Under the pieces are notes generated by a model. The model was given only the letters and a program-made list of their open reading frames with translations, had not been told where the DNA came from and searched no databases. Position numbers and translations under genes: made by a program. Below, piece after piece: positions 2 to 40,133 of a stretch of DNA of 64,000 bases; positions within the stretch are counted from its first letter, which is position 1; every line of letters starts with the position of its first letter. The stretch is from Candidatus Omnitrophota bacterium (GTDB taxonomy: Bacteria; Omnitrophota; Gorgyraeia; Gorgyraeales; Gorgyraeaceae): the NCBI GenBank assembly GCA_043821705.1, contig JBDRCN010000051.1, forward strand, positions 28,007 through 92,006, in the 5' to 3' direction.

Positions 2-700
2 TATTTTTATGTTAGCGAGAAAAGGGGAAGTATAAAGAATGTAAATTTTGCTACATTTTTACTTATATTTTCTGCGATCGGCCTGACTTTTTCAAGGGGC
101 ACATGGATCTCTTTGATATTGATGCTCACGGTTTGGATGGCATTAAAAAGGAAGTTCAAGTGGATTGTTTTAGTGTGGAGCCTGGCTGTATTGTTTATCT
201 GGTTCTCTTCTTCAAGGTTTTGTTTTATCCCGGGCTTTAGGCATCGCTTTAGGATAGAACTATTGAGGCATTATATTAAATATGCTCACAGGACAGGTGC
301 GTATTTAGTTACTTGGAGCATGTTAAAAGAACACCCTTTTGTAGGTATTGGTCTAGGTCATTTTAGAGTATTATTTAATCTCTATTCAAATACGAAGCGT
401 AGCTATGAAGTCATGATCCCTGACAGCGTTTATCTCATGCATTTGGCAGAGACAGGTATTATCGGATTCGCAGGTTTTATAGCATTTTTAGGGAGTATAT
501 TTAGGAAACTCTTTATATCGTATGGGAAATCTGAAGAAAATAGTAAAAAGCTGATTTTTTATATGTCCATAAGCTTTATAGGCCTGTTGTTTAATATGAA
601 TACTTATGATGTTTTTTTATGGAAGACACCGCTTTATCTGTTTTGGTTGTTTTGTGGAATTTTAATGTCTTTTTCTATGGAAGAGCAAGCTCGTCTATAA
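2..700 (+). CDS. O-antigen ligase / Wzy_C-family membrane protein, 5'-truncated by the window edge. The frame is open from base 2 and the stop is at 698-700.
   Basis: The translation contains FSRGTWISLILML...HPFVGIGLGHF...YLMHLAETGIIGF and multiple TM segments typical of the O-antigen ligase domain. The reading frame runs open to the window start. Confidence 0.55.
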   Translation, partial: YFYVSEKRGSIKNVNFATFLLIFSAIGLTFSRGTWISLILMLTVWMALKRKFKWIVLVWSLAVLFIWFSSSRFCFIPGFRHRFRIELLRHYIKYAHRTGAYLVTWSMLKEHPFVGIGLGHFRVLFNLYSNTKRSYEVMIPDSVYLMHLAETGIIGFAGFIAFLGSIFRKLFISYGKSEENSKKLIFYMSISFIGLLFNMNTYDVFLWKTPLYLFWLFCGILMSFSMEEQARL

Positions 701-1817
701 ACGTATCAAGGTCATCTATAATTTTTTCCCAGTTATATCTTAGCGATGCTTCTCTAGCAGCCTGCCCCATTTTTAATACGATATCTTTATTATCTGCAAG
801 ATAGGCCAATTTTTTAGACATCTCAGTGGAAGATAGCGGGGTAAGAAGCCCGGTGACATTATTATCTATTATCTCTTTTGGGCCGCCTTGATCTATTGCT
901 ATTACAGGTTTTCCATAAGCCATTGCTTCTATAATAGTGATGCCAAAGTCTTCGTTGGGGGTAGTGGAAAGAGTTGCATAGCTATTTTGGAAAAGCTTAC
1001 GGAAAGTGTTTTTATCCGGATCTGGTATAATTTTTATTTTTTTATTGTTTTTAGATAGTTTTACTAGATAGTTATAGTATTTCTCGCTTCTTTTGTCTAA
1101 TTGTCCGGCTATGATAAGTTCAAAATTATTGTTTTTTTTGCAAAATATATTAAATGCTTCTATAGAAAGTTCAATATTTTTCCACCACTTTAGTCTGGCA
1201 GGGTGCAGAAAATAATTGTCATATTTCCATGTAGGAGTTATATTTTTACAATTTACCCCATTTGGCAATATGTGAATATGATTTTTGCTTATAAGATCAG
1301 CATTCAGAATTCTTTTTTTTACTTCTTGGCTTATCGTTATGGCATGTTTATAGTTTTTCCATGCTATCTTATCAATTGCCTTAAAGATATTAGACGCTAA
1401 GAGAAAAATAGGTTTTTTAAGTATATTTTTCTTTAAATAGACACCTTTCATGAAAGGATCATGAATAACTTTAATAGGGGTATGACAGAAGCATAAAATA
1501 GGTAAAGAGTGGTTTCTGAGCGTTATAAGATCTCCAAGCCCTTCGCTGTGTACTATCAATGCATCGTATTTTGAAAGGTTTATTTTTTGGAAGCACACCT
1601 TTAAAGCAGCCAGTAATACTTTTAAATATCCGCGCTCAACAGGTATTTTTGATAGCTCTACAATGTCTAAGTTCCTGAATTCTTTAAATGTTTGATCTTT
1701 ATCATAGTGGCTTGTAAAGATGGTCCAATTATGACGGCTACGCTTCACTGTTTCTAGTATAGTTTTCTCTATGCCACTTTTTAGATATATCCAAGGGTAA
1801 TATAAGGCAATTTTCAT
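675..1817 (-). CDS. Glycosyltransferase family 1 (GT4-type, retaining)
   Basis: 380 aa. The C-terminal GT1 motif EDFGITIIEAMAYGKPVIAIDQGGPKEII...TGLL is present. It is convergent with the upstream ligase gene. Confidence 0.85.
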   Translation of the reverse strand: MKIALYYPWIYLKSGIEKTILETVKRSRHNWTIFTSHYDKDQTFKEFRNLDIVELSKIPVERGYLKVLLAALKVCFQKINLSKYDALIVHSEGLGDLITLRNHSLPILCFCHTPIKVIHDPFMKGVYLKKNILKKPIFLLASNIFKAIDKIAWKNYKHAITISQEVKKRILNADLISKNHIHILPNGVNCKNITPTWKYDNYFLHPARLKWWKNIELSIEAFNIFCKKNNNFELIIAGQLDKRSEKYYNYLVKLSKNNKKIKIIPDPDKNTFRKLFQNSYATLSTTPNEDFGITIIEAMAYGKPVIAIDQGGPKEIIDNNVTGLLTPLSSTEMSKKLAYLADNKDIVLKMGQAAREASLRYNWEKIIDDLDTFIDELALP

Positions 1818-1837: not shown

Positions 1838-2923
1838 ATGTGTTATAATGAAGTTATGGAAAATAAAAAAACCAGCTTTGAAGATCGGTTGATATTTTTA
1901 TGTGCTCAGATAAAAACCACAACAGCTCAAATTGATGAGATTAAAGAGGTCTTAGCGCATAATCTGTCATGGGAACATGTTATTGCAGTATCAAGTAAGC
2001 ATGGTGTGTCCCCATTTTTATATTATAATCTAAAAAAGACAGATTTGTCAAACTTGATATCAAAAGATATTTTTGGAAGATTGAAAAATATTTATTATTT
2101 GAATTTAGCTAGAAATTTAAAATTATTAAATGAAGTATATATTTTGATATATTCTTTAAGAAAAAACGGGATCGATGTTATCCCGCTAAAAGGAGCATGT
2201 TTGTTGGAGACAGTCTATAAGGATCCTGGCTTAAGAAGAATAGCTGATATTGATATTTTGGTAAAAGAAAAAGATCTGGATAAATTAAGAGAAAATATGC
2301 CAAATGAGTACATTGAATGGGAATGCGCTGACCTAACTCAAAAGAAAAAACATACAAATTTTACAAGATCAATAACAAAGTTCTTAAAATTACATCTAGA
2401 CGTACATACGAATATATCAAATCTATCTATGCCAAGACCTCATAAAATAGATATTCCGCTATGGGATAGGGCTGAGATATATGATATAAACGGTAAAGAT
2501 ATTTATTTTTTATCAAAAGAAGATACTTTCTTAAATTTAGCCATTCATTTGAGGAGGCATACTCGTGTGGCGACGTTAAAGTTAAAATATTTGCAGGATA
2601 TTGCAGAGCTGCTTAAGGCTTACGGAAAAGACTTTGACTGGAGATATATATTAAGGATGGCAAAGAAGAATAATATTAAGAATGCTGTGTTTTATGCGTT
2701 GTTTATTTGTAAGAAGTTTTTTGGAGTTTCTGTTAATGAGGAAGTTTTTTTTAGTCTTAGACCAAACAGTCTTATAGTCAAAATTATGGATATCTTACTT
2801 AATAAAGAGACATTTTTTAAATTAAAACCATGGCATGGAGTGATATTGAGATTGTTGATGTTTGATAGGTTTTACTATGTTTTTTGTTATCTACATATAA
2901 TAGTTTTTAGAAAATGGGACTAG
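1838..2923 (+). CDS. Uncharacterised nucleotidyltransferase-like protein (NTP_transf_5-like). It is the first gene of the candidate RiPP island.
   Basis: 361 aa with a DxD-type motif RIADIDILV. Its size and composition resemble the nucleotidyltransferases found beside HPr-kinase-like enzymes in RiPP clusters. An extended -10 TGtTATAAT at 1841-1849 overlaps the first ATG, so the true start may be the ATG at 1856. Confidence 0.5.
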   Translation: MCYNEVMENKKTSFEDRLIFLCAQIKTTTAQIDEIKEVLAHNLSWEHVIAVSSKHGVSPFLYYNLKKTDLSNLISKDIFGRLKNIYYLNLARNLKLLNEVYILIYSLRKNGIDVIPLKGACLLETVYKDPGLRRIADIDILVKEKDLDKLRENMPNEYIEWECADLTQKKKHTNFTRSITKFLKLHLDVHTNISNLSMPRPHKIDIPLWDRAEIYDINGKDIYFLSKEDTFLNLAIHLRRHTRVATLKLKYLQDIAELLKAYGKDFDWRYILRMAKKNNIKNAVFYALFICKKFFGVSVNEEVFFSLRPNSLIVKIMDILLNKETFFKLKPWHGVILRLLMFDRFYYVFCYLHIIVFRKWD

Positions 2924-2989: not shown

Positions 2990-4957
2990 ATGAAAAGTGA
3001 ATACATGGCTATAAAAAACCAAACAAATCTTCCAAGAATACCACTTGAGGCAAGTATAGATCTTACCTATAGATGTAATAATAACTGCAGGCATTGCTGG
3101 AATCGGATACCTGGAAACTCAAAAAAAGAAAAAGAAGAGCTTTCGTTAGAAGAGATTAAAAATATAGCTTCTGAAGCCAGGAGCCTAGGAACAAGGAAAT
3201 GGCTTATCTCTGGTGGGGAGCCTATGCTGAGGCAGGATTTTATAGATATATTTGATTATTTGACCAGCCATTCCAAAAGCTTTCATCTTAATACAAATGG
3301 CACCCTGATTACTCCCAAGATAGCAAAAGTTTTTAAAAAGAGGCGCGGCGCTATAATGGTGGCTTTATATGGCGGAGATAAAAAGGTGCATGACCATATT
3401 ACCCGCAACCCAGGCTCATTTGAGCAAGCTTTAAGAGGTTTTAGATATCTAAAAGAAGAAGGGGTTAGATTTATAGTTCAGCTGATTCCCATGAAAGATA
3501 ATTTCCATCAGATAGATAAAATGAAAGAATTAGCTAAATCTCTCAGTGATGTTTATAGAATAGGCGCTTCATGGCTATTTGGTTCTGGATGCGCGGAAAG
3601 AAATAAAGAGATATTTAAGCAAAGGCTTCCTGCGGAAGTGGTGGTAGATTTAGACAAACCTGATATGTCATATGATAATAATGGTTTTGATCCGGAAGAA
3701 GAGGTTAAAAAAGAGGAGAGTTGCAGTATTAATACGAAGGGTATTTTTTCATCCTGCATAGACATGAGGCGTAATTTTCACATAGACCCCTGTGGAAAAA
3801 TGAGCTTCTGCAGTTTTGTTATAGGCCCGGAATTACGATACGACTTAAAATCAGGAACATTAAAAGATGCATGGGAGAATTTTATCCCATCTTTAAAAAA
3901 TAAGCTTACTGCTACAGAAAGATACCAGAAAACTTGCGGTTCGTGTGAACTTAGAGGAGATTGTAAGACATGTCCTGCTTATAGTTATTTGGAACATAAA
4001 AATTATTCAGGGAAGATAGGTTATCTTTGCGATGCAGCAAAAGAGACAAAGAAATATAAGGATAACTGGAAAAAGAATCACAGGAGGTTTTACGAAATAG
4101 CTGATATCAGTATACAGGTTGATTCAGATCTTCCTATAACAGATAAGACCTTTGCCAGTAAGTTTAAAGAGTTTGAAATAAAAAGCCCAGAAAAAGACAT
4201 AGTTAAAATAAGGCATCACTTTGGCATACCTGACATAACAAAAAAAGTTCTAGGAGAGGAGGTCTATCGTAAAGCACCATGGGCAATATATAAAAAGAAA
4301 AATTCCTGGATATATTTAGGTATATCTCCGATAGAAGACGATAAGCACCTTGATAGAATCGCTGTCTTTAATAAAGAGCATACTAGGCTAAGAGTGTATA
4401 ATACTAAGAGCAATAAGTTATTAAATAATTGCTCAACATCTTTAACTTTTTTTCCTAATGACCAGATAATGATTTCCAGGGCCTTGGCAGACAGAAATGG
4501 GTGTTATTTTCATTCAAGCGGAGTGGATTTTGAAGGAAAAGGCCTGTTGTTTATAGGACACGCAGAGGCAGGTAAGACTACAATGGCCAAGCTTTTGGAG
4601 GAAAAAGGAGCGGATATATTGTGCGATGAGCGTGTTATAGCCAGGAAAAAAAATGGCCAGTTCAGAATATATGGCACCTGGGATCATAGTGATTGGAATA
4701 AAGTGCTTAATAAAAGCGCTCCCTTAAAAGGAATATTCTTTCTTGAAAAATCAAAGCATAATTACTTAGAAAAAGTAAAGAATAAACAGATAATCATAAA
4801 AAAGCTTCTTTCAAGGGTTGTTAGGCCATTTGTAGATAAAGAATGGTGGGATAAGATAGTTTCAATAATAGAAGCTTTATCAAATGAAGTACCATGTTAT
4901 TTTGTCTATTTTGATAAGACAGGCAGGATAGCAGAGGTATTAAGGAAGTTAAAATGA
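2990..4957 (+). CDS. Radical SAM / SPASM-domain peptide-modifying enzyme fused to a C-terminal HPr-kinase-like P-loop domain
   Basis: 655 aa. It has a CNNNCRHC (Cx3Cx2C) radical-SAM motif and a GGEP glycine-rich SAM motif. A Cys-rich SPASM region CGSCELRGDCKTCPAY follows. The C-terminal HSSGVDFEGKGLLFIGHAEAGKTT...ADILCDERV matches the HprK C-domain pattern H-S-x-V-x-GKG-LL-G-x-GKT...DD/ER-V. Confidence 0.8.
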   Translation: MKSEYMAIKNQTNLPRIPLEASIDLTYRCNNNCRHCWNRIPGNSKKEKEELSLEEIKNIASEARSLGTRKWLISGGEPMLRQDFIDIFDYLTSHSKSFHLNTNGTLITPKIAKVFKKRRGAIMVALYGGDKKVHDHITRNPGSFEQALRGFRYLKEEGVRFIVQLIPMKDNFHQIDKMKELAKSLSDVYRIGASWLFGSGCAERNKEIFKQRLPAEVVVDLDKPDMSYDNNGFDPEEEVKKEESCSINTKGIFSSCIDMRRNFHIDPCGKMSFCSFVIGPELRYDLKSGTLKDAWENFIPSLKNKLTATERYQKTCGSCELRGDCKTCPAYSYLEHKNYSGKIGYLCDAAKETKKYKDNWKKNHRRFYEIADISIQVDSDLPITDKTFASKFKEFEIKSPEKDIVKIRHHFGIPDITKKVLGEEVYRKAPWAIYKKKNSWIYLGISPIEDDKHLDRIAVFNKEHTRLRVYNTKSNKLLNNCSTSLTFFPNDQIMISRALADRNGCYFHSSGVDFEGKGLLFIGHAEAGKTTMAKLLEEKGADILCDERVIARKKNGQFRIYGTWDHSDWNKVLNKSAPLKGIFFLEKSKHNYLEKVKNKQIIIKKLLSRVVRPFVDKEWWDKIVSIIEALSNEVPCYFVYFDKTGRIAEVLRKLK

Positions 4958-5053: not shown

Positions 5054-5263
5054 ATGAAACAAAAAAAATGGGATAAGCCTGAATTGATTGTATTGTTGAG
5101 AGGAGAACCTGGAGAAGATGTTTTAATAGGGCAGTGCAAAACAGACACCGATGGTACTGACAAAATAGGGCCTATGGATGTAATAACAGGTTGCAGAGTT
5201 AACGCAGGTTGGATGGGCTGTCCGCCGGAGACAGCGTGCAGAGATTTTAGTTATACAACTTAG
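5054..5263 (+). CDS. RiPP precursor peptide A, with a PqqA-like leader (WDKPELIVLLRGEPGE) and a Cys-rich core ending in ...CRDFSYTT
   Basis: 69 aa. A strong RBS AGGAGG lies 8 nt upstream. A TGn-TATAAT promoter is at ~4976-5004. The core has five Cys. It lies between radical-SAM maturase genes. Confidence 0.6.
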   Translation: MKQKKWDKPELIVLLRGEPGEDVLIGQCKTDTDGTDKIGPMDVITGCRVNAGWMGCPPETACRDFSYTT

Positions 5264-5361: not shown

Positions 5362-5577
5362 ATGAAACAAAAAAAATAGAATAAGCCTGAATTGATTGTA
5401 TTGTTGAGAGGGGAGCCAGGAGAGTCAGTATTAGTCGGTGAATGTCTTACTGTATCAGCCGAGCCAGAGTTAGGTTCTAGTATAGGTGCAGCAGCAGAGG
5501 TAAACAATTGTGCATTGGTAAGATCTGCTGGTTGTGCAGCTATACAATGCAGTGCTATAGGCTATGAAGTCATATAG
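5362..5577 (+). CDS. RiPP precursor peptide B, a paralog of A, with an in-frame TAG at codon 6 (5377-5379) where A has TGG (Trp). It is either a pseudogene or uses the TTG start at 5392.
   Basis: The nucleotide sequence atgaaacaaaaaaaaTAGaataagcctgaattgattgtattgttgagagg parallels precursor A codon for codon. The downstream leader ELIVLLRGEPGESVLVGEC is conserved. The core is Gly/Ala/Cys-rich and sactipeptide-like. Confidence 0.45.
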
Positions 5578-5646: not shown

Positions 5647-6828
5647 ATGCATCAGGTATATGTAAAGAAAAAAAACATAAAACCTTATTTAGGTACTTTA
5701 ACCATAGAGCTTACAGAGAGGTGTAATAATAACTGCACTCACTGCTGTATTAACCTACCTGAACAGGACCTAGAGGCAAAAAGAAAAGAACTTTCCACAG
5801 ATAAGATAAAGTCTATTATTGAAGAGGCGCTTATTCTTGGCTGTAGGAAGATATGGTTTACAGGAGGAGAGCCTCTTCTAAGAGAGGATTTTGAAGACAT
5901 ATACATATTTACGCGTAAACTTGGGTTAAGAGTACTTCTTTTTACTAATGCTATGCTTATTACTCCTCGCATAATAGATGTTTTTAAAAAATATCCACCT
6001 AATGAAAAAATAGAAGTCACAGTATATGGATTAACTAAACAATCCTATGAATCTTCTACCAGGGTTCCTGGTTCTTTTGAAAAATTTAATCAAGGTACAA
6101 ACTTATTAAAAGAAAACAATATCCCATTTGTAATCAAGACAGCTTTATTGCCAGGAAATAAGCATGAAATGGGTAAAATACGAAGTTTTTCAGATTCCCT
6201 TCCTGCTACAGAGCTTGGCCTTCATTATTCTCTGCATTTTGACCTGCGAGGAAGAAGGGATGATGAAAAAAAGAACAACATGATAAAGCAATTAAGGATT
6301 TCTTCAAGAGATTCACTAGAGGTTTTAGCGAAAAATCGCGATGCTTATATTAAAGAGAAAAAGTTATATTGCAATAGATTTAATGGCTTAAAGGGAGATA
6401 GGCTTTTTTCATGCGGCGCAGGAATGCAGGGGGCGACTCTGGATGCTTATGGAAATCTACAACCCTGCGTTCTTCTTCGCCACCCTGATACAGTTTATGA
6501 CATTAAGAAAGGCACATTAAAAGAAGGGCTTAAAAAAATGCTCTATGAGGTGAGGAATATCCGTGCTGCTAACCCTGATTATTTATCCCGTTGTGCAAAA
6601 TGTTTTATAAAAGTATTATGTGAGCAGTGCCCAGGAAAATCATGGGGAGAACACGGTACTCTGGATACGCCGGTTGAATATCTTTGCAGTCTTGCGCATG
6701 GTTCTGCAAGATTTCTTGGCCTTTTAAAAGATAATGAAAGGGCGTGGGAGATTGAAGATGGGATAGAGAGGATGGAGAGGTTCACAGGCAAGAAAATAAA
6801 GGAGGTAGAAAGTGTCAACAAAAGTTAA
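5647..6828 (+). CDS. Radical SAM / SPASM-domain peptide maturase (paralog 2)
   Basis: 393 aa. It has CNNNCTHC, GGEPLL, and a C-terminal Cys cluster CAKCFIKVLCEQCPG. It is highly similar to the enzymes at 2990 and 7603. Confidence 0.8.
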   Translation: MHQVYVKKKNIKPYLGTLTIELTERCNNNCTHCCINLPEQDLEAKRKELSTDKIKSIIEEALILGCRKIWFTGGEPLLREDFEDIYIFTRKLGLRVLLFTNAMLITPRIIDVFKKYPPNEKIEVTVYGLTKQSYESSTRVPGSFEKFNQGTNLLKENNIPFVIKTALLPGNKHEMGKIRSFSDSLPATELGLHYSLHFDLRGRRDDEKKNNMIKQLRISSRDSLEVLAKNRDAYIKEKKLYCNRFNGLKGDRLFSCGAGMQGATLDAYGNLQPCVLLRHPDTVYDIKKGTLKEGLKKMLYEVRNIRAANPDYLSRCAKCFIKVLCEQCPGKSWGEHGTLDTPVEYLCSLAHGSARFLGLLKDNERAWEIEDGIERMERFTGKKIKEVESVNKS

Positions 6829-7120
6829 TCTTGATAAAATTTATAATATCTCTGACGAAGATGTTGTAGCTAGGGAAGTTGCTGGGGAATTTTTAATTAT
6901 TCCTATAACATCAGGCGTAGGAGATATAGAAGATGAGATCTATACTCTAAATGCTACAGGCAAGGCTATATGGGATAAGATAGATGGTAAAAAAACATTA
7001 AAAGAGCTAGCTTCAGAGCTTGCTGCTGAGTTTGAGGGCACTTCTGAAGACATTGAAAGAGATGTCACAGGCATAACAGAGGAGCTTTTAAAAAGAAATA
7101 TAATCTCTGAAAAGAAATAA
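6812..7120 (+). CDS. PqqD-like RiPP recognition element (RRE) protein
   Basis: 102 aa. Its size and pattern (VAREVAGEFLIIP...TLNATGKAIWDKIDGKKTLKEL...) are typical of the PqqD family. It overlaps the upstream radical-SAM gene by 17 nt. Confidence 0.65.
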   Translation: MSTKVNLDKIYNISDEDVVAREVAGEFLIIPITSGVGDIEDEIYTLNATGKAIWDKIDGKKTLKELASELAAEFEGTSEDIERDVTGITEELLKRNIISEKK

Positions 7121-7121
7121 T

Positions 7122-7613
7122 ATGTATCTTAGATATAAGGATGAAGTTGCTTATTTTTATAACGAGGAAATGATTGATTTAATGAAAGAAGCTTTCAAAA
7201 AAGGTAATTCCTTTCGTTTTAAGGCCAAAGGGTTTAGTATGTCGCCTTTCATTAAAGGCGGAGATGTTATTACTATTAAGCCGTTAAAAGAAGTTTCTTT
7301 GATAATAGGCGATATAGTATCTTTTATAAGCCCTAAAACAAATAGCCTTGCAGTGCACAGGATAGTCTCCATAAAAAAAAACGGTTGTGTGTTTAAAGGG
7401 GACAATAGCTTTAATTCTGATGGATTGGTTTTAAATAAGGATATTCTAGGTGTAATAAATAAGATAGAGAGAAATAATAAAGATATTACTTTCGGGCTTG
7501 GTAAGGAAAAAGGTATTATAGTATTTTTAAGTAGGACTAGAATCCTATTTTTATTTTTAAAGGTGTTTAGAGGTGTAAGGCGCTACACCAGGAGATTTTT
7601 TAATGGGAGATGA
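7122..7613 (+). CDS. S24/S26-family (signal-peptidase/LexA-like) serine peptidase, a candidate leader peptidase
   Basis: 163 aa. It has a GFSMSPFIKGGD nucleophile box, GDIVSF, HRIV and a KGDNSFNSDG box E-like motif. It is wedged between RRE and maturase genes. Confidence 0.55.
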   Translation: MYLRYKDEVAYFYNEEMIDLMKEAFKKGNSFRFKAKGFSMSPFIKGGDVITIKPLKEVSLIIGDIVSFISPKTNSLAVHRIVSIKKNGCVFKGDNSFNSDGLVLNKDILGVINKIERNNKDITFGLGKEKGIIVFLSRTRILFLFLKVFRGVRRYTRRFFNGR

Positions 7614-8751
7614 TTTTGTAAAGGTTCAGAAAATAACAGAGTTTAAGTTTAGAGGAAGCTCAAGCTCCACAAATACTCCCAAAGCTTTTAGTTTAGAACT
7701 TACTGCCAGGTGTAATAATAGGTGCGGGCATTGTTACATAGGCTTACCTGCCAATGATAAGGCTGCCAAAGAAAAAGAGTTGTCTTTTGAACAGATTAAA
7801 AGCATAGTTGATCAGGCTGTTTCAATGGGTGTTACAGGATGCCTTTTAACAGGAGGAGAGCCTCTCTTAAGAGATGATTTTTTTGACATCTATTTATACC
7901 TTAAGAAAAAAGGCCTATTTGTGTCTATTTTTACTAATGCCTGCCTTATTACAGAAGAACATGTAAAGCTTTTTAAAAGATATCCGCCGCGTGATGTTGA
8001 AGTAACAGTATATGGCGTTACAAAAGAGACGTATGAAAAAGTCACAAATGTCCCAGGTTCTTTTGATTCTTTTATGAGGGGGCTGAACCTTTTACTAGAT
8101 AATAGTATCAAGGTCAGGTTTAAGGCAATGGCTGTAAGGTCTAATTTAAAAGAACTTGAAGAGATCAAAAAATTCTGTAATGAAAGGACAAAAGATTATT
8201 TTAGATTTGACCCATTGCTTCATTTTAGGTATGACAGAAATGAATTCAGAAACCAGATGATTGCTTCCGAGCGCCTTACGCCTCTAGAAATAGCCCAGAT
8301 AGAAAAAGAGGATTTGAAGAGATTCGAGGTTTTGAAAAAAAACTGTGACAACTATATTATGCCGGAGTTTTTAGATAGAGTTACTAATCGCCTTATCTTA
8401 TGCGGAGCTGGTAATGGGAAATTTGTAGTAACTTATGACGGCTATTTTAAGCTATGCTCATCGCTTCATCATCCAGACTGTATGTATGACCTAAAAAAAG
8501 GCACTTTAAAGGATGCATGGGGAAACTTTATACCTAAAGTGAGGACAATGACCTCAAATAGGAAAGAATTTCTGGAAAAGTGCAGTAAATGCCCTATAAT
8601 AAATCTCTGCCTATGGTGTCCTGCGCATGCGTATCTTGAATCTGGTGAACTGGATAAGCCGATAGATTATTTCTGTGAAGTGGCGCATGCACGTGCGAAA
8701 ATGCTGGAAAGTGCAGTAAAGAAAAAAGAAGATGAAAAATTGCTAAAGTGA
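7603..8751 (+). CDS. Radical SAM / SPASM-domain peptide maturase (paralog 3)
   Basis: 382 aa. It has CNNRCGHC, GGEPLL, and a C-terminal CSKCPIINLCLWCPAHAY. Over its N-terminal ~150 aa it is ~50% identical to the 5647 gene by eye. Confidence 0.8.
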   Translation: MGDDFVKVQKITEFKFRGSSSSTNTPKAFSLELTARCNNRCGHCYIGLPANDKAAKEKELSFEQIKSIVDQAVSMGVTGCLLTGGEPLLRDDFFDIYLYLKKKGLFVSIFTNACLITEEHVKLFKRYPPRDVEVTVYGVTKETYEKVTNVPGSFDSFMRGLNLLLDNSIKVRFKAMAVRSNLKELEEIKKFCNERTKDYFRFDPLLHFRYDRNEFRNQMIASERLTPLEIAQIEKEDLKRFEVLKKNCDNYIMPEFLDRVTNRLILCGAGNGKFVVTYDGYFKLCSSLHHPDCMYDLKKGTLKDAWGNFIPKVRTMTSNRKEFLEKCSKCPIINLCLWCPAHAYLESGELDKPIDYFCEVAHARAKMLESAVKKKEDEKLLK

Positions 8752-8887: not shown

Positions 8888-10678
8888 ATGAGGCTATTCC
8901 AGCCTGATTTTAAGCAAACCAAAAAACAGTTCGAACTTTTTTTAAAATTCGTGAGGCTTATACTGCCTCATAAAGCCAAATGGATATTTATAATCTTATT
9001 AGGGGGTTTCTGGACGCTCTTAAGTGTAGTCAATCCATATATAACAAAGCTGGTTGTGGATGAAGGGATAATGAAGAGTGACCTGAGAAGATTTATAGCG
9101 CTAGCAGCCTTAGGGATCGTGATATTTATTATTCTTGGGGCAATCAATGGATTAAAGGAATATCTGGAGAAAAAAGTAAGCCTAGAGGTAAAATTTAGCT
9201 TAAATAAAATAGTTTTTGATAAGATCAATAAACTTTCTCTCAGCTGGTTTAGGACTAAATCAACAGGAGAGAATATCTATAAGATCAGTAATGACATTGA
9301 TAGGGTAAATAGCCTTATTACGACTATCCCTCCTAAAGCAGTAATGCTTTTTCCAAGAGTGATCTTTATCTTTTTAATAATGTTAAAGCTGAATTACAAA
9401 ATTGCTTTATTTTCATTGCTTTTAGCGCCATTTTTGTATATAGGCCCGTATTACTTTATCAAGAAACGTAGATCGATCTGGGAAAAATTAATAGAGTGCT
9501 CTCAAGGTATATTTAAATTTTTACATGAAAGTTTTTCACATAGCTATCTTATAAAAGCATTTGGCAAGGAGAGAGAAGAAAAGGACAAGTACTTAAAAAT
9601 ACTAAAAGATAATATTGAGATAGAAAAGACCAGCACAAAGCTAAACATTTTTAATAGCTTTGTTGCAAGGATAGCAGATAAGATCATAGTAGGGCTGATC
9701 ACTTTTTATGGCGGATACCATGTTATTAAGGGAGAGATGACTCTAGGGAGCCTGACTGCGATCTTAGTCTATCTAGGGCAACTGGTAGGCATGCAGCACG
9801 GGTTTATAGGATTTTTCCAGAGCACTGTCCTAGGCCTCGTATCATGCGAAAGGATAGCAGGTATCCTGGATGAAAAAGAAGAAATCACTGAAACATGTGA
9901 CGCAAAAGATATTTTAATTAAAAAAGGCGAAATAGAATTTAAAAAAGTAAATTTTGGATATTCTAAAGGTAAAGCTATTTTAAAAGATCTTGATTTCAAA
10001 ATAGAGGGCGGAAGGCATATTAGCTTAGCTGGTTCTTCGGGGCAAGGCAAGACCACAATCTTAAACTTGATCGCAAGGCTTTATGATGCGGATAGCGGTG
10101 AAATAATGATCGATAGGCAGTATATAAAAGACATCACGCTTAACTCCTTAAAAAAACAGATCAGCATGGCATTGCAGGAGACATTTCTTTTTAATACAAG
10201 CGTAAAAGACAATATCCTCTATGGGGACGGGAATGCTAGCTTAGAAGATGTTATAAGAGTGAGCAAGATTTCTTTAGTAGATAGTTTTACTGAAAATCTG
10301 CCAGAGAAGTATGACACAGTTATAGGTGAAAATGCATGTAAGATCTCAGAGGGACAGAAGCAGAAGATCGCTATTGCGAGAGCTTTAATTAAAAATCCTA
10401 AAGTTTTGATCCTAGATGAAGCATTTTCATCTATGGATTCAGCTAGCGAAGATAAGATAATATCGAACATAAAAGAAAATTTTAAGGATATTACAGTAGT
10501 CAGCGTCTCCCACCGCTTATCAACAGTAAAGCAATCAGACCTGGTGTATTTTTTAAATAATTCTGGGGGGATAGAGGTAGGTAAGCCAGAAGAACTTTTA
10601 GAAAAGAACATGGAATTTGAGGAATTGTTCAAGGGACAGAGGGAATTGACCATATCAGACCCGGGGTCTAATACATAA
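8888..10678 (+). CDS. ABC exporter, fused permease and ATPase (no C39 peptidase domain)
   Basis: 596 aa. An N-terminal 6-TM domain is followed by Walker A GSSGQGKTT, an ISEGQKQKIAIARAL signature, and Walker B LILDEA. Confidence 0.85.
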   Translation: MRLFQPDFKQTKKQFELFLKFVRLILPHKAKWIFIILLGGFWTLLSVVNPYITKLVVDEGIMKSDLRRFIALAALGIVIFIILGAINGLKEYLEKKVSLEVKFSLNKIVFDKINKLSLSWFRTKSTGENIYKISNDIDRVNSLITTIPPKAVMLFPRVIFIFLIMLKLNYKIALFSLLLAPFLYIGPYYFIKKRRSIWEKLIECSQGIFKFLHESFSHSYLIKAFGKEREEKDKYLKILKDNIEIEKTSTKLNIFNSFVARIADKIIVGLITFYGGYHVIKGEMTLGSLTAILVYLGQLVGMQHGFIGFFQSTVLGLVSCERIAGILDEKEEITETCDAKDILIKKGEIEFKKVNFGYSKGKAILKDLDFKIEGGRHISLAGSSGQGKTTILNLIARLYDADSGEIMIDRQYIKDITLNSLKKQISMALQETFLFNTSVKDNILYGDGNASLEDVIRVSKISLVDSFTENLPEKYDTVIGENACKISEGQKQKIAIARALIKNPKVLILDEAFSSMDSASEDKIISNIKENFKDITVVSVSHRLSTVKQSDLVYFLNNSGGIEVGKPEELLEKNMEFEELFKGQRELTISDPGSNT

Positions 10679-10712: not shown

Positions 10713-11606
10713 ATGATATCCGTAATAGTTGTAAATCATAATAGAAGCGCGCTATTGAAGAGGTGTCTTGAGTCTCTTAGGGGCCAGAGCCTTATGGACT
10801 TTGAGGTCATTGTGGTTGATAATGCATCTAGTGATGATAGTGTAGAGATGGTAAAGACCTATTTTCAGGATGCAAAGGTCATACAAAACACAACTAACCT
10901 ATATTTCTCAAAAGCATATAACCAAGGCATGGAAGCATCATACGGAAGTTTCATCCTGTGCTTAAATAATGATGCGTACCTGGAGAAAGATTTTTTAAAA
11001 GAAGCGCTCTTTGCTATAGGAAAAGATGAGAAGATAGGCATGGTAAGCGGAAAGATCCTTCGCGAAGATAAATTGACCATAGATTCAACAGGGCTGTTTT
11101 TAGGGAGAAATCGCAAGCCTATAGAAAGGGGTTACGGGTTACCCTCCTACGCCAAGGCTACGGAGGGCAGGCGGGATACGGGGCTGTATGATAAAGAAGA
11201 ATATATCTTCGGAGTAAGTGGCTCATGCGCATTTTACAGGAAAAAGATGCTCGAAGACATAAAAGATAAACATGGGTATTTCGACGAGAGGTTCGAGATG
11301 TATTATGAAGACTTGGACCTTTCCTGGAGAGCGCAGAAGAAGGGATGGAAAGCGTATTATACGCCTAAGGCGATAGCATATCATAAAAGGAGTTCAGGTT
11401 TTTTCACGATCCCAGATGACTTAAAGAAAAAATATATAAGGAATCGCTATTTATGCATGAAGAAAAACGATTCATTAAAAGATGTCATATGGAATATACC
11501 CTTTATATTAATATATGAAATTAAACTTTGGGGCTATATGATGTATAACTATTTTAGATCCCGGATCTTAAACATAGAAAAAACTCCGGCAAGATCCGGG
11601 ATCTGA
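10713..11606 (+). CDS. Glycosyltransferase family 2
   Basis: It has an N-terminal MISVIVVNHNRSALLKRCLESL...VVDNASSDDS DxD-type GT-A fold signature. Confidence 0.8.
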   Translation: MISVIVVNHNRSALLKRCLESLRGQSLMDFEVIVVDNASSDDSVEMVKTYFQDAKVIQNTTNLYFSKAYNQGMEASYGSFILCLNNDAYLEKDFLKEALFAIGKDEKIGMVSGKILREDKLTIDSTGLFLGRNRKPIERGYGLPSYAKATEGRRDTGLYDKEEYIFGVSGSCAFYRKKMLEDIKDKHGYFDERFEMYYEDLDLSWRAQKKGWKAYYTPKAIAYHKRSSGFFTIPDDLKKKYIRNRYLCMKKNDSLKDVIWNIPFILIYEIKLWGYMMYNYFRSRILNIEKTPARSGI

Positions 11607-12085: not shown

Positions 12086-14158
12086 ATGAAAGTAGAGAAA
12101 ATAATAGGCAGAGAGAATCTCGTAATAGAAACAGGTAAGATGGCTAAGCAGGCGAATGGCGCTGTGTGCGTTCAATATGGGGGCACAGTAGTGCTAGTGA
12201 CAGCTGTCTCTAGCAAAGAGGTAAAGAAGGGGATAGATTTCTTCCCTTTAATGGTGGAATATAAAGAAAAGACATATGCTGCTGGTAAGATCCCAGGAGG
12301 GTATTTTAAAAGAGAAGGACGTCCTACAGAAAAAGAGATATTAACAGCTCGTCTTATAGATAGGCCTATCAGGCCGCTTTTTCCAGAAGGATATATAAAT
12401 GATGTGCAAGTATTTGCAACAGTGCTTTCAAGCGACGGGGAGAATGATTCTGACATCCCTTCCTTAATAGGGGCATCGTGCGCGCTGCATATATCAAATA
12501 TTCCTTTTTTAGGGCCAATAGGGGCTGTAAAGATAGGCATGATAAATGATGAGTTTATAGTCAATCCTACTTTTAAGGAGACAGAAGAGAGTAAGCTCAC
12601 TTTATTGGCAGTAGGACTTAAAGATAAAATAGTCATGATAGAATCCGAAGCTAATGAGGCATCAGAAGAAAAGATGCTTGAAGCTCTGGAATTTGCGCAA
12701 AAATATATAAAAGAGAGCATAGCTATCCAGGAAGACCTAAGAAAACAGTGCGGGATAGAAAAAGTAACACCAGTATTAGCAACTATCGATCAAGGGCTTT
12801 ATGAAAAAGTAAAGTCGCTCGCTCTAAAAGAGCTTCAAAAAGCAGTCAGTCTTTCCAAGAAAGAAGAAAGAAATGAAAAGAAAGACCAGCTAGTCAAGGA
12901 AGTGGTCGAGAAGCTAAAGGCAGAGGATGAGGAATTATCAGAAGTAGAGATAAAAAATGCCCTGCACAAGCTGGAAAAAGAAGAGATAAGAGCTTTTATC
13001 TTAAAAAATAATAAGAGGATCGATGGAAGAGGTTTTGAAGAGGTAAGGGCAATAACATGTGAAGTAGGGGTTCTTCCCAGGACACATGGTTCAGGGCTTT
13101 TTACCAGAGGAGAGACCCAGAGTCTTTCCGTTACTACCTTAGGCACTGGCCAGGATGAACAGAGGATCGATTCGCTAGAGGGCGAACAGTTCAAGACCTT
13201 TATGCTTCATTATAATTTCCCGTCTTTTAGCGTGGGAGAAGTAAGGCCAGCTAGAGGGCCAGGAAGACGCGAGATAGGCCATGGCGCATTAGCTGAAAAA
13301 GCTTTTAAAGCAGTTATACCCCCAGCTGAAGAATTCCCATATACAATAAGGGTAGTCTCAGAGATATTGGAATCAAATGGCTCTAGCTCTATGGCAACAG
13401 TCTGCGCTAGCACGCTTTCTCTGATGGATGCAGGGGTGCCTATTAAAAAACCTGTAGTGGGGATCGCGATGGGATTAGTAAAAGAAGGAGATAAAGCAGC
13501 TATTCTTACTGATATAGCAGGAGAAGAAGACCATTTTGGGGATATGGATTTTAAGGTCACTGGGACTGAGAGCGGTATAACAGCAGTTCAGATGGACTTA
13601 AAGATAGATGGTATAGGCCTGGCTTTAATAAAGAAGATCATGGCTCAGACCAAACCTGCGAGAGAATCTATAATGGCAAAGGTATTGGAAGTCATACAGA
13701 ACCCTAGAAAAGAACTTTCTACATATGCTCCTAAGATAGAGACCCTTACAATTGACAAAGACAAGATAAGGGATCTTATCGGCCCTGGTGGAAAAATAAT
13801 AAAAAAGATCATTGCTGATACTGGAGCGACCATTGAAGTGGATGATGACGGTAAAGTAGCAATATCATCTGACAATCAAGAGGCTATAAATAAGGCGATG
13901 GAGATCGTAAGAGGTATCGCAGGAGAGCTCGAGATAGGTGCAGTGTTTAACGGCACCGTGACGAAGATAATGAATTTCGGGGCATTTGTCGCGTTATTCC
14001 CAGGCAGAGAAGGCCTAGTGCATGTATCTGAATTAGCAGGCGGATTCGTGAAGAATGTCGAGGATGTAGTAAAAGTCGGAGATAAAGTAAAGGTTAAGCT
14101 CGTTAAAATAGACGAGATGGGCAGGCTGAATCTCAGCATGAAACAGGCAAAAGAATAG
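12086..14158 (+). CDS. pnp: Polynucleotide phosphorylase
   Basis: 690 aa with RNase PH, KH and S1 domains. The order is the canonical rpsO-pnp. Confidence 0.95.
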   Translation: MKVEKIIGRENLVIETGKMAKQANGAVCVQYGGTVVLVTAVSSKEVKKGIDFFPLMVEYKEKTYAAGKIPGGYFKREGRPTEKEILTARLIDRPIRPLFPEGYINDVQVFATVLSSDGENDSDIPSLIGASCALHISNIPFLGPIGAVKIGMINDEFIVNPTFKETEESKLTLLAVGLKDKIVMIESEANEASEEKMLEALEFAQKYIKESIAIQEDLRKQCGIEKVTPVLATIDQGLYEKVKSLALKELQKAVSLSKKEERNEKKDQLVKEVVEKLKAEDEELSEVEIKNALHKLEKEEIRAFILKNNKRIDGRGFEEVRAITCEVGVLPRTHGSGLFTRGETQSLSVTTLGTGQDEQRIDSLEGEQFKTFMLHYNFPSFSVGEVRPARGPGRREIGHGALAEKAFKAVIPPAEEFPYTIRVVSEILESNGSSSMATVCASTLSLMDAGVPIKKPVVGIAMGLVKEGDKAAILTDIAGEEDHFGDMDFKVTGTESGITAVQMDLKIDGIGLALIKKIMAQTKPARESIMAKVLEVIQNPRKELSTYAPKIETLTIDKDKIRDLIGPGGKIIKKIIADTGATIEVDDDGKVAISSDNQEAINKAMEIVRGIAGELEIGAVFNGTVTKIMNFGAFVALFPGREGLVHVSELAGGFVKNVEDVVKVGDKVKVKLVKIDEMGRLNLSMKQAKE

Positions 14159-37736: not shown

Positions 37737-37834
37737 TCGGGAAAGTGGGTTCGGAAAAAGTTGCAGGTTAATAAAAGCTTGACAGGTTTTTAGAACTGTA
37801 GTATAAAGAAGTTAATTGAATATTTATTTTTATA

Positions 37835-37985
37835 TTGTCTAAGGGAAGCTGGTGAGATGCCAGCGCAGCCCCGCTGCTGTAATAGGGTACGAAAGCTAAC
37901 ACTAAGCCATTATCTGCTCACGAAGCGGACGAGAAGGCGTTAGCAAGTAGAGAGATCCTTAAGTCAGAAAACCTTACAGTATATT
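37835..37985 (+). ncRNA. Cobalamin (B12) riboswitch
   Basis: GGGAAGCTGGTGAGATGCCAGCGCAGCCCCGCTGCTGTAA matches the conserved core (GGGAA-GGTG-CC...CCCGC-CTGTAA). It is followed by GTCAGAAAACC, and then by expression-platform hairpins and a terminator. Confidence 0.7.
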
Positions 37986-38078
37986 TTTCTTAAAAACCTC
38001 CGCGAAGGACGGAGATTTAAGAGTTCTATGATTATAAAGGTAATCATAGAGCGATAGAGGCTGATAAAACGTGGGATC

Positions 38079-38129: not shown

Positions 38130-40133
38130 ATGAAAAAAATAATATTGATCGGTATTGCGGCTGTAACATTATCTTCTTTTGCTTACGCAGAAGACAGCGC
38201 AATAGATTTGGAAAAGATAGTTATAACCCCGGCGCGTATGTGTCAATATATGAACGAGGTTGTCTCAAATGTGGATGTAATCACTAGCGATGATATTGCT
38301 GGCTCTAATGCGCTGTATGTAAAGGATATTTTAGAGCAGAAACTAGGCCTGAACATATACAGCAATAGCACCCCCAAGACAGTCAAGGTAGACATCAGAG
38401 GCTTTGCAGATACATCTGTAAGCAATGTATTAGTATTGATCGATGGCAGAAAAGTAAATTCCATAGACATGTCAGGCGCAGACTGGGTACAGGTACCTGT
38501 GGAGACAATAGAAAGGATAGAGGTCATAAAAGGCGCTGGGTCAGTCCTATATGGGGATAATGCAGTAGGAGGTGTAATTAATATAGTTACAAAAAAAGGC
38601 AGAGGCGATAAGGCCTCTGGGAGCGCAGGCGTTAAATATGGAAGCTATAACTTGATCAAGGAAGATGTTGAGTTGAAAGGGGAGTTTAAAAAAGTGTCTT
38701 ACTATTTCCATTCTGATTACAGTGAATCAGATGGTTACAGGGATAATAGCGATCTATTGGTAAAGGATTATAATACTAGGATATGTTTTGATGCCACAGA
38801 TGTTCTTAGTTTGGATTTTGCAGCTGGCTGGCATGAGGATGACTACGGCATGCCAGGAGGGCTTAATGACTCTGAATTGGCACAATATGGAAGACGAGGA
38901 TCAGTGGATAATAGAGATTTTGCCACTACTAAGGACAGATACATAAGACTATCTCCTGATTACAAGGCTGAATTGTTTGGCGTGGATTTTGGGGATATTA
39001 TAATAGACTTATTTTACAGGAACAGGGATTCTTACTCATGGTTCTATTATGGGGGCTTTCCAACAGCTACTAAGTATATGATAGACACGAAAGGTGTGAC
39101 ATTGAAGCACGTTTATAAGGGGGACCTTAAGGGCACCAGGCTTAACGTTGTGACAGGCGTAGATTATTATGATGTCGAGCATATTATCAAGCAGAGCGAA
39201 TGGGGAACAGATGATCTGACCATTTACAAGGATGAGCTAGGTGTTTATTCATATCTTGACTACGAACTATTTGACAAGTTTTTTATAAATACTGGAGGAA
39301 GGTACCAGACTGCAGAATATACTTTTGACCAAAGGGCTTCAAGCGTTAATTATGTAAAGAGAGAACCGAGAGAAAGTGTTTTTATGGGCGGCGCCAAATA
39401 CGAATACAGAAAAAACTCTTTTATACATTGTAGCGTTCATGAGACTTTCAGGTTTTTGGCGACTGATGAGTGGTATTCAACATGGACAGGATTAAATACT
39501 AATATCGATCATCAAACAGGAATTCAATATGAAGCAGGCATAAAACATGATTTTGACAATAAAGCCAAAATTAAATTGACCCCTTATTTAATAGATATAA
39601 AGAATGAGATATATCTCAATCCGAGCGTATGGCCCGGGAACAATGATAATTATGATAAGACAAGAAGAAAAGGGCTTGAAGTAGGCGTGGAAGCCAACAT
39701 AAAAGACATATTGGAGATAGATTTTCTGGATAAATTGTCTTTATCAGCAAACTACAATTACCAGGAACCAAAATTCAAGGATGGCTCTTTTAGCGGCAAA
39801 TATATACCTTTTGTCCCAAAGCATTCTTTTAACACAGTGCTGGAAGTGGGTGTTTTTGACGGTTTAAATATTTCAGCATCAGGCAGGTTCATTGGGGATA
39901 GGTACGCTATAAATGATACGAGCAATGTGGCATCCAAAGTGAAGAATAGCTTCGTATGCGATACAAGATTATACTTCATTAAGAAATACTATGAGATCTA
40001 CGCAGGAATTAATAATATATTTAATGAGAAATACTTTGATTACGCTGTTAAACCTACTGGAGCAGGTACTGCAAAAGATTACTATCCTGCACCAGAACGC
40101 AATTTCGAAGTCGGAGTAAAGTGTAAATTTTAG
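38130..40133 (+). CDS. TonB-dependent outer-membrane receptor (BtuB-like cobalamin receptor)
   Basis: It has a signal peptide, a TonB-box/plug region (EKIVITPAR), a 22-strand barrel-sized C-terminal part and a terminal aromatic residue (…KCKF). Confidence 0.85.
   Translation: MKKIILIGIAAVTLSSFAYAEDSAIDLEKIVITPARMCQYMNEVVSNVDVITSDDIAGSNALYVKDILEQKLGLNIYSNSTPKTVKVDIRGFADTSVSNVLVLIDGRKVNSIDMSGADWVQVPVETIERIEVIKGAGSVLYGDNAVGGVINIVTKKGRGDKASGSAGVKYGSYNLIKEDVELKGEFKKVSYYFHSDYSESDGYRDNSDLLVKDYNTRICFDATDVLSLDFAAGWHEDDYGMPGGLNDSELAQYGRRGSVDNRDFATTKDRYIRLSPDYKAELFGVDFGDIIIDLFYRNRDSYSWFYYGGFPTATKYMIDTKGVTLKHVYKGDLKGTRLNVVTGVDYYDVEHIIKQSEWGTDDLTIYKDELGVYSYLDYELFDKFFINTGGRYQTAEYTFDQRASSVNYVKREPRESVFMGGAKYEYRKNSFIHCSVHETFRFLATDEWYSTWTGLNTNIDHQTGIQYEAGIKHDFDNKAKIKLTPYLIDIKNEIYLNPSVWPGNNDNYDKTRRKGLEVGVEANIKDILEIDFLDKLSLSANYNYQEPKFKDGSFSGKYIPFVPKHSFNTVLEVGVFDGLNISASGRFIGDRYAINDTSNVASKVKNSFVCDTRLYFIKKYYEIYAGINNIFNEKYFDYAVKPTGAGTAKDYYPAPERNFEVGVKCKF

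Follow-up and report, generated by a model that had tools for sequence, protein, structure and literature searches.

What does a protein do that begins as a radical S-adenosylmethionine (SAM) enzyme and ends as what looks like a kinase? The question is raised by a 655-amino-acid (aa) protein encoded on a 64,000-nucleotide stretch of DNA, hereafter the window, from a Candidatus Omnitrophota bacterium (assembly GCA_043821705.1, contig JBDRCN010000051.1, positions 28,007 to 92,006 of the forward strand). An earlier note on this DNA had described the protein as a radical SAM/SPASM enzyme fused to an HPr-kinase-like P-loop domain and had proposed that the fusion couples peptide crosslinking to phosphorylation. 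Based on sequence profiles and structural models, we are nearly certain that the C-terminal domain, which is of the ScmC family, belongs to the HprK superfamily (PEPCK-like P-loop) and that its nearest characterised relatives are LppK, PsmK, and PadeK, the serine kinases of peptides that are made by ribosomes and modified post-translationally (RiPPs). Sequence and gene neighborhood furthermore lead us to favor, with some reserve, a pathway in which this domain would phosphorylate the C-terminal hydroxyl of a precursor peptide encoded next to it.

The N-terminal half was placed by its Pfam match, its cysteine motifs, and its fold. In a Pfam scan, PF04055 (Radical_SAM) matched residues 25 to 181 (5e-26; 92 bits, the cut-off being 29.5), and the CX3CX2C motif is formed by C29, C33, and C36 (nucleotides 3074-3097). 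A complete set of seven SPASM cysteines follows (C256-X12-G269-X4-C274, C316-X2-C319-X5-C325-X2-C328, and C347; nucleotides 3755-4030). The last SPASM spacing is X2 where the textbook motif has X3, and X2 is also found in both paralogues of the window, rSAM2 and rSAM3. All radical SAM and SPASM cysteines were invariant in an alignment of 30 full-length fusion homologues. Using a full-length AlphaFold2 model (pLDDT 84, pTM 0.79), we found that the best Foldseek matches of this half were SkfB, CteB, SuiB, anSME, and PqqE. Because the radical SAM core begins at about residue 20, this half, hereafter rSAM1, has no fused N-terminal RiPP recognition element (RRE). By its sequence, it is thus an RRE-less radical SAM/SPASM peptide maturase and a candidate peptide crosslinker. 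It shares fold and cluster-binding motifs with CteB, SuiB, SkfB, and PqqE over its 365 residues, but the solved examples carry no kinase-like domain, and the window enzyme is accompanied by a discrete PqqD protein instead of a fused RRE. In the model, the last SPASM helix (residues 344 to 364) passes directly into the first strand of the ScmC domain (residues 365 to 370), with no disordered or flexible linker.

The ScmC domain spans about 290 residues, not the roughly 220 given in the earlier note, and consists of a beta-rich N-terminal subdomain (approximately residues 366 to 490) followed by an HprK-like kinase subdomain (approximately residues 491 to 655). When residues 365 to 655 were scanned alone against NCBIfam, the matches were HprK-related kinase B (4.4e-7), SynChlorMet cassette protein ScmC (8e-7), HPr(Ser) kinase/phosphatase (2e-4), and HprK-related kinase A (0.03); Pfam Hpr_kinase_C gave an E value of 0.003. 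A family search with this domain against 5.8 billion proteins returned 153 matches. The best 120 of these are 39 to 57% identical to the query, nearly all with more than 90% query coverage, and 120/120 carry a precomputed match to PF27840, which the contig annotation labels "ScmC"; it is through these relatives that we assign the window protein to PF27840 by homology. All 35 aligned members matched both ScmC (TIGR04249) and HprK_rel_B, the best TIGR04249 E value among the relatives being 2.4e-12, and 19 of the 35 matched HPr(Ser) kinase itself (best E value, 9e-8).

Profile-profile comparison tied the family to RiPP kinases. With hhalign, the ScmC family profile matched the LppK-like kinase of Paenibacillus cremeus with a probability of 98.2% (E value, 4.5e-14) over 144 columns reaching the C terminus, and the lasso-type kinase of the same organism with 96.4% (1e-9) over 96 columns. 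Searching the family profile against PDB sequences was weakly informative (HprK, 0.008; ABC matches confined to the Walker A stretch), and a comparison of folds was therefore needed. This assigned to the domain an HprK/PEPCK-type fold and not a generic P-loop NTPase fold. The fusion proposed in the earlier note was thus borne out by Pfam, NCBIfam, hhalign, and fold comparison alike, and the outcome that would have spoken against it, namely, placement of the C-terminal region in an unrelated P-loop family, did not occur: the domain falls in the HprK superfamily.

The catalytic signature of HprK is retained in order, with the histidine preceding the Walker A motif and the acidic pair following it. 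H508, the P-loop, and D546-E547 align residue for residue with Coxiella HprK. Both motif strings quoted in the earlier note are present (residues 508 to 531 and 541 to 549; nucleotides 4511-4582 and 4610-4636), and the HprK C-domain arrangement that it saw in them holds for the order of the three elements, while the window's copy has an alanine for the motif serine and a glutamate for the second aspartate. Across the family, the conserved elements are the histidine, GxSxxGK[ST]T, C-D-D-R, and G-T-W-S-H-G. The position of H508 is a histidine in 259/264 members and that of D546 an aspartate in 242/260, and the P-loop Gly, Lys, and Thr and the positions of R548, W564, and H566 are likewise conserved. 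The domain differs from the C-domain of HprK/P in having GHAEAGKTT and D-E; the substrate of HprK/P, moreover, is a protein (Ser46 of HPr), and its N-terminal domain is another one.

We then asked how widespread the fusion is, since a database search for other such fusions had been suggested and the earlier note implied that the architecture was singular. It is not: public data contain many such fusions, and they belong to a catalogued family (PF27840, with TIGR04249 as its NCBIfam relative). Among the best 150 cluster representatives (50% identity), 16 are about 635 to 680 aa long with a match that starts near residue 330 to 373, and most of the others are stand-alone proteins of about 300 aa. 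Dozens of fused orthologues of about 620 to 680 aa are recorded solely as "radical SAM protein." A search with the radical SAM half similarly recovered many proteins with both PF04055 and PF27840, from Omnitrophota, Desulfobacterota, Victivallaceae, Aminicenantes, Methanoregula, and others; one of them, a 633-aa Omnitrophota protein, is 53% identical to the window fusion over its full length. The assembly index contains no record of the window protein itself. Using tblastn across the fetched loci, we defined three orthologous groups of radical SAM enzymes, rSAM1, rSAM2, and rSAM3. rSAM1 is directly in frame with ScmC in loci L005, L007, L009, L033 to L036, and L085, and loci L001 and L003, in which ScmC stands alone, contain rSAM2 and rSAM3 only. 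In L001 (GCA_032942435.1, 9650-10909), a 116-aa open reading frame (ORF) abutting ScmC matches rSAM1 over the latter's first 79 residues, CX3CX2C included, at 47% identity; the stand-alone ScmC of this locus thus appears to have arisen by an internal deletion of a fusion in which ScmC was kept. We conclude that the rSAM1-ScmC fusion is real, conserved, and common.

If the domain is a peptide kinase, the precursors should tell which residue it acts on. The leader of precursor A fits the motif [Y/W]xxPx[L/V/I/A/F/Y] that discrete RREs bind (PMC13381572). We collected 39 distinct precursors, comprising the WxKPEL-type leaders of all fetched loci and distant YEPPRLTTISLRPEEAVLGHCK-type precursors, which adjoin ScmC-like genes of 25 to 33% identity in Acidobacteriota. 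The C-terminal residue was Ser in 35 of them, Thr in 2, and Ile in 2. The spacing of this tail from the last cysteine was C-x5-S in 20/39 and C-x4-S in 11/39, the latter in the Acidobacteriota branch. Given a Ser content of 11.6% in the cores, the binomial probability of so many terminal serines is about 1e-28, a figure that overstates the independence of related sequences, although the set covers more than 25 loci and several phyla. The C-terminal hydroxyl acceptor proposed in the earlier note is therefore matched by the 35 of 39 related precursors whose final residue is a Ser, set at a fixed spacing from the last cysteine, while the window's own precursor ends in Thr-Thr. Standing beside HprK-like and PsmN-like enzymes, this fixed terminal Ser is our strongest argument that a C-terminal hydroxyl would be phosphorylated. 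The precursors also differ in their cysteines. Those from loci with the fused rSAM1 have four in 14 of 20 cases, the extra one lying 2 to 5 residues before the last, and those from loci without rSAM1 have three, suggesting the C-terminal segment as the part of the peptide on which the fused enzyme acts.

The window encodes a second precursor, B, whose leader is nearly identical to that of A except that a TAG replaces the TGG encoding the Trp of the WxxPxL RRE motif. Because TAG is a normal stop codon here, terminating 11 of the 52 ORFs of the window, and because B does not end in Ser or Thr, it is probably a pseudogene. A recoding of this TAG was considered and rejected on the same count. Translation could alternatively start from a TTG at 5392, giving a product without the recognition motif.

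The proposed chemistry has precedents in characterised systems. PsmK adds one to three phosphates to the C-terminal Ser of pseudomycoidin, and its D158A/D159A mutant is inactive; PsmN, an "uncharacterised nucleotidyltransferase," puts a hexose on the phosphorylated peptide and is required for hexose addition (PMC6993621). The earlier note had likewise stated that stand-alone HprK homologues phosphorylate the C-terminal Ser of lasso-peptide precursors. Like the paeninodin and pseudomycoidin pathways, in which the C-terminal Ser of a precursor bound by an RRE is phosphorylated by an HprK-family kinase before an NTP_transf_5-type enzyme adds a hexose, ScmC clusters have precursors that nearly always end in Ser. 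In contrast, the lasso scaffold is made by a cyclase and B1/B2 proteins rather than by radical SAM/SPASM enzymes, and the lasso kinase is more distant and unfused.

The LPP pathway, consisting of LppK, LppB (RRE), LppS (SpI), LppD, and LppN, is closer in gene content. LppK polyphosphorylates Ser3 in LPP precursors, the SpI-like LppS cleaves the leader, and LPP clusters have been reported within capsule loci (PMC13381572). All five functions have counterparts in the window, as does the leader motif in related form; the kinase subdomains are homologous, sharing GHSxAGKST and the D-E pair, and both systems lie in polysaccharide gene surroundings. The LPP clusters of Bacillota nevertheless lack radical SAM enzymes and yield linear products, and LppK targets a core Ser3 instead of the C terminus. 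The LPP kinase is a stand-alone protein of 260 aa, whereas the kinase-like domain of the window is of the ScmC family and fused to a radical SAM/SPASM enzyme in Omnitrophota. In P. cremeus (L029, 7015-17846), adjacent LPP-type and paeninodin-type lasso clusters each have their own HprK-like kinase and RRE, matching the colocalization described in PMC13381572. The LPP-type cluster comprises a YxxPxVLxHQ...FETxxS precursor, the kinase, an RRE, an ABC transporter, and an NTP transferase, and its kinase reads HSSCV..GKAHIFAGHSGAGKST...LLSDE, near the ScmC consensus.

The SynChlorMet (SCM) cassette (TIGR04248 to TIGR04251, PF27840) resembles the window in having a ScmC-type protein, a PqqD-like ScmD, and two radical SAM/SPASM enzymes (ScmE and ScmF). 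The window's scores are far below the SCM equivalog cut-offs, however (77 to 98 against 400 bits for ScmE/F and 28.7 against 125 for ScmC), and we therefore consider its cluster a distinct branch of the ScmC family. It also differs in that ScmC is fused to a third radical SAM enzyme and that SpI, ABC, and NTP_transf_5 genes are added. To our knowledge, no function has been reported for the SCM cassette, nor has any ScmC-family protein been characterised.

The remaining genes of the cluster are listed in Table 1 together with the features discussed above.

Table 1. Features of the fusion gene and its cluster in the window
Feature	Positions	Strand	Basis or remark
NTP_transf_5 nucleotidyltransferase (PsmN/LppN-like), candidate glycosylating enzyme for the phosphorylated peptide	1838..2923	+	PF14907 3.5e-56
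Fusion protein rSAM1-ScmC/HprK-like, 655 aa	2990..4957	+	Unbroken ORF
Radical SAM/SPASM domain, residues 1-365	2990..4084	+	Pfam Radical_SAM, cysteine motifs, fold matches
ScmC-family domain, residues 366-655	4085..4954	+	Family search, profiles, fold
His508, equivalent of the conserved His before the HprK/P P-loop	4511..4513	+	Aligned to Coxiella HprK 3tqf
Walker A P-loop GHAEAGKTT, G523-T531; family consensus GHSEAGKST	4556..4582	+	Family alignment
D546-E547-R548; family consensus D-D-R	4625..4633	+	Counterpart of D158/D159, the metal-binding Asp pair in PsmK
Precursor A, 69 aa: leader W6-D-K-P-E-L, ...VLIGQCK junction, four Cys, end ...CRDFSYTT	5054..5263	+	
Precursor paralogue B, probable pseudogene	5362..5577	+	In-frame TAG at codon 6 (5377-5379), end ...GYEVI
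Radical SAM/SPASM maturase 2 (rSAM2)	5647..6828	+	Pfam/NCBIfam; 46-57% orthologues in all related loci
Discrete PqqD-family RRE, predicted leader-binding chaperone	6812..7120	+	Pfam PqqD 2.4e-15; ScmD 7e-8; lasso PqqD 3e-7
Archaeal-type signal peptidase I-like protein (SpI/SipW-like), candidate leader peptidase	7122..7613	+	Peptidase_S24 4.9e-6, above threshold
Radical SAM/SPASM maturase 3 (rSAM3)	7603..8751	+	Pfam/NCBIfam; orthologues 47-61% identity
MsbA-like ABC exporter	8888..10678	+	Pfam ABC_membrane and ABC_tran; NCBIfam MsbA 5e-91

The order rSAM2, PqqD, rSAM3 downstream of the fusion is kept in at least 12 related loci, and a PsmN-like enzyme accompanies ScmC in at least 7. The NTP_transf_5 protein of the window matched the LppN-like gene product of the P. 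cremeus LPP cluster by BLASTP (5e-13) and retains the D-I-D motif. The SpI-like protein matched sigpep_I_arch (1.5e-11) and SipW (4e-6) in NCBIfam. The start of the PqqD gene overlaps the end of rSAM2 (6812-6828), and that of rSAM3 overlaps the end of the peptidase gene (7603-7613), which is consistent with a translationally coupled operon. Genes for an O-antigen ligase-like protein (Wzy_C), GT1, and GT2 bracket the cluster (window positions 113-1817 and 10713-11606), as they do in the Omnitrophota relative, and this surrounding hints that the peptide may be linked to surface glycan chemistry. This relative, the metagenome-assembled genome GCA_043814965.1 (L085), has the gene order of the window from Wzy_C to rpsO-pnp. 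Polynucleotide phosphorylase is 78% identical between the two (window 12086-14158, L085 19877-21901) and the fusion protein 53%, indicating that the peptide cluster evolves faster than the neighboring housekeeping genes. Elsewhere in the window, a gene for a TonB-dependent receptor (38130-40133) has a cobalamin riboswitch upstream of it (Rfam RF00174, 79 bits; 37799-37995, forward strand).

In the pathway that we propose, the discrete PqqD RRE would bind the W-x-K-P-E-L leader of precursor A and present the peptide to the three radical SAM/SPASM enzymes, which would yield a crosslinked, Cys-rich core. The ScmC domain, by means of its P-loop (G523 to T531), His508, and D546/E547, would transfer phosphate from ATP to the C-terminal hydroxyl, here that of a threonine. 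The PsmN-like nucleotidyltransferase may then attach a sugar to the phosphate, the SpI-like peptidase would cut the leader, and the MsbA-like ABC transporter would export the product. Since the fusion is linker free and rSAM1 is associated with the extra cysteine, the fused enzyme probably handles the peptide's final stretch of about ten residues, introducing crosslink and phosphate in one binding event. It is accordingly plausible, from sequence and model, that the fusion couples crosslinking to phosphorylation, as the earlier note had supposed. Taken as a whole, the picture of a widespread RiPP class that combines radical SAM crosslinking with ScmC phosphorylation, and often glycosylation, of an invariant C-terminal Ser five residues beyond the last cysteine, with a rigid bifunctional fusion and a window subtype that is perhaps adapted to Thr, is one that we put forward tentatively, as a possibility somewhat short of even.

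Several observations weigh against this picture. Every HprK-type hidden Markov model scored below its curated cut-off (PF07475, 17.7 against 33.3 bits; the ScmC equivalog TIGR04249, 28.7 against 125; TIGR00679, 20.5 against 240), and the domain is therefore a superfamily relative of HprK/P and not an orthologue. The link between rSAM1 and the extra cysteine is a trend, with L007a and L084 as exceptions. In the window itself, precursor A has C-x6/7 spacing to its Thr-Thr end instead of C-x5-Ser, precursor B is probably a pseudogene, and LppK left an S3T variant of its substrate unphosphorylated (PMC13381572). The kinase domain has minority residues at four near-invariant sites: S525A (Ala in 7/262 members), D547E (Glu in 16/260), S565D in the W-S-H-G motif (Asp in 4/258), and G567S in the same motif (Ser in 16/258). 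Finally, a search of the literature available to us turned up no paper on SynChlorMet/ScmC, and none that places an HprK-like enzyme in a peptide pathway with radical SAM enzymes.

These deviations raise the question of whether the kinase module is simply decaying in this genome, with an inactive domain in a partly pseudogenised locus. All five scored motif positions are indeed nonconsensus, a nonsense codon interrupts the leader of precursor B, and precursor A breaks the C-x5-S rule. We nevertheless think decay quite unlikely. None of the eight ORFs for enzymes and transport is broken, and relaxed selection on the kinase domain was rejected on the basis of divergence: the ratio of identity in the ScmC domain to that in its radical SAM partner is 0.894 in the window, and the mean of the other fusions is also 0.894. 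Furthermore, the combination of GKT, D-E, and W-x-H-S (window 4556-4693) recurs in the independent members P0197, P0232, P0190, P0165, and P0200, which suggests a kinase subtype rather than random decay, and the LppK-like kinase of P. cremeus likewise has D-E at the acidic pair. No WxKPEL-type precursor was found on the contigs of P0165, P0197, P0200, and P0232, which are short or have another cluster context. In L088 (6880-15804) and L089, a fusion of the variant subtype lies beside two B12-binding radical SAM enzymes, an FlmR_OhkR_N protein, and PqqD, and no WxKPEL-type precursor was detected in either locus; from this context, the fused enzyme may serve more than one peptide family.

An intact domain could still act without phosphorylating, as an ATP-binding or noncatalytic peptide-docking scaffold that keeps the precursor's C-terminal tail in place for the radical SAM enzyme to which it is fused. 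This is unlikely in our view. More than 92% of about 260 members retain the His, the P-loop Gly, Lys, and Thr, the first Asp, and the Arg, as is typical of a catalytic site, and stand-alone ScmC persists in loci without rSAM1, including the one that appears to have lost rSAM1 by deletion and kept ScmC. In addition, at least seven loci also contain a PsmN-like enzyme, whose pseudomycoidin counterpart works on the peptide in its phosphorylated form (PMC6993621). The phosphate might also be transient, serving as a leaving group on the way to a dehydro residue or as a handle for a glycan or lipid, so that the end product is no phosphopeptide. Class III/IV lanthipeptide synthetases provide an analogy with their kinase-lyase elimination chemistry, the cores are Cys rich, and Wzy_C, GT1, and GT2 are neighbors both in the window and in its Omnitrophota counterpart. 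We judge this very unlikely all the same: Pfam and NCBIfam scans of the cluster found no lyase or elimination domain, a C-terminal site would be unusual for lanthionine-type chemistry, and the closest characterised systems keep the phosphate or glycosyl-phosphate (PMC6993621, PMC13381572). As for the C-terminal region being an unrelated ABC or AAA P-loop fragment, or the fusion an artefact of assembly or frameshift, the chance is negligible. The family profile does pick up ABC transporters in the PDB, but over a 24-residue Walker A stretch only; profiles, profile-profile alignment, and fold comparison rule out such a fragment, and the many proteins with PF04055 and PF27840 and the 30 aligned fusions with invariant cysteines rule out an artefact. 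Phosphorylation of the C-terminal hydroxyl by the ScmC domain thus remains the reading that we prefer.

The ScmC family, the SCM cassette, and the fused architecture were already present in public records; what is added here is the link to RiPP serine kinases and the terminal-Ser rule. ScmC has so far been catalogued as a conserved protein of radical SAM peptide cassettes without a function. Its profile and fold link to proven RiPP serine kinases, together with the near-invariant terminal Ser, leads to a concrete functional proposal for several hundred genes, mostly from uncultured phyla. If correct, the peptide class would span Omnitrophota, Desulfobacterota, Acidobacteriota, Chloroflexota, Methanoregula, and others, and the phosphorylation and glycosylation toolkit of the lasso and LPP pathways of Bacillota would also serve radical-SAM-crosslinked peptides across many phyla. 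Within the fusion, the kinase site would anchor or mark the C terminus of the peptide, and the extra cysteine next to it would meanwhile be crosslinked at the radical SAM site. Radical and phosphoryl-transfer RiPP chemistry would thereby be joined in one polypeptide for the first time, and the fusion would provide a compact bifunctional catalyst for RiPP engineering.

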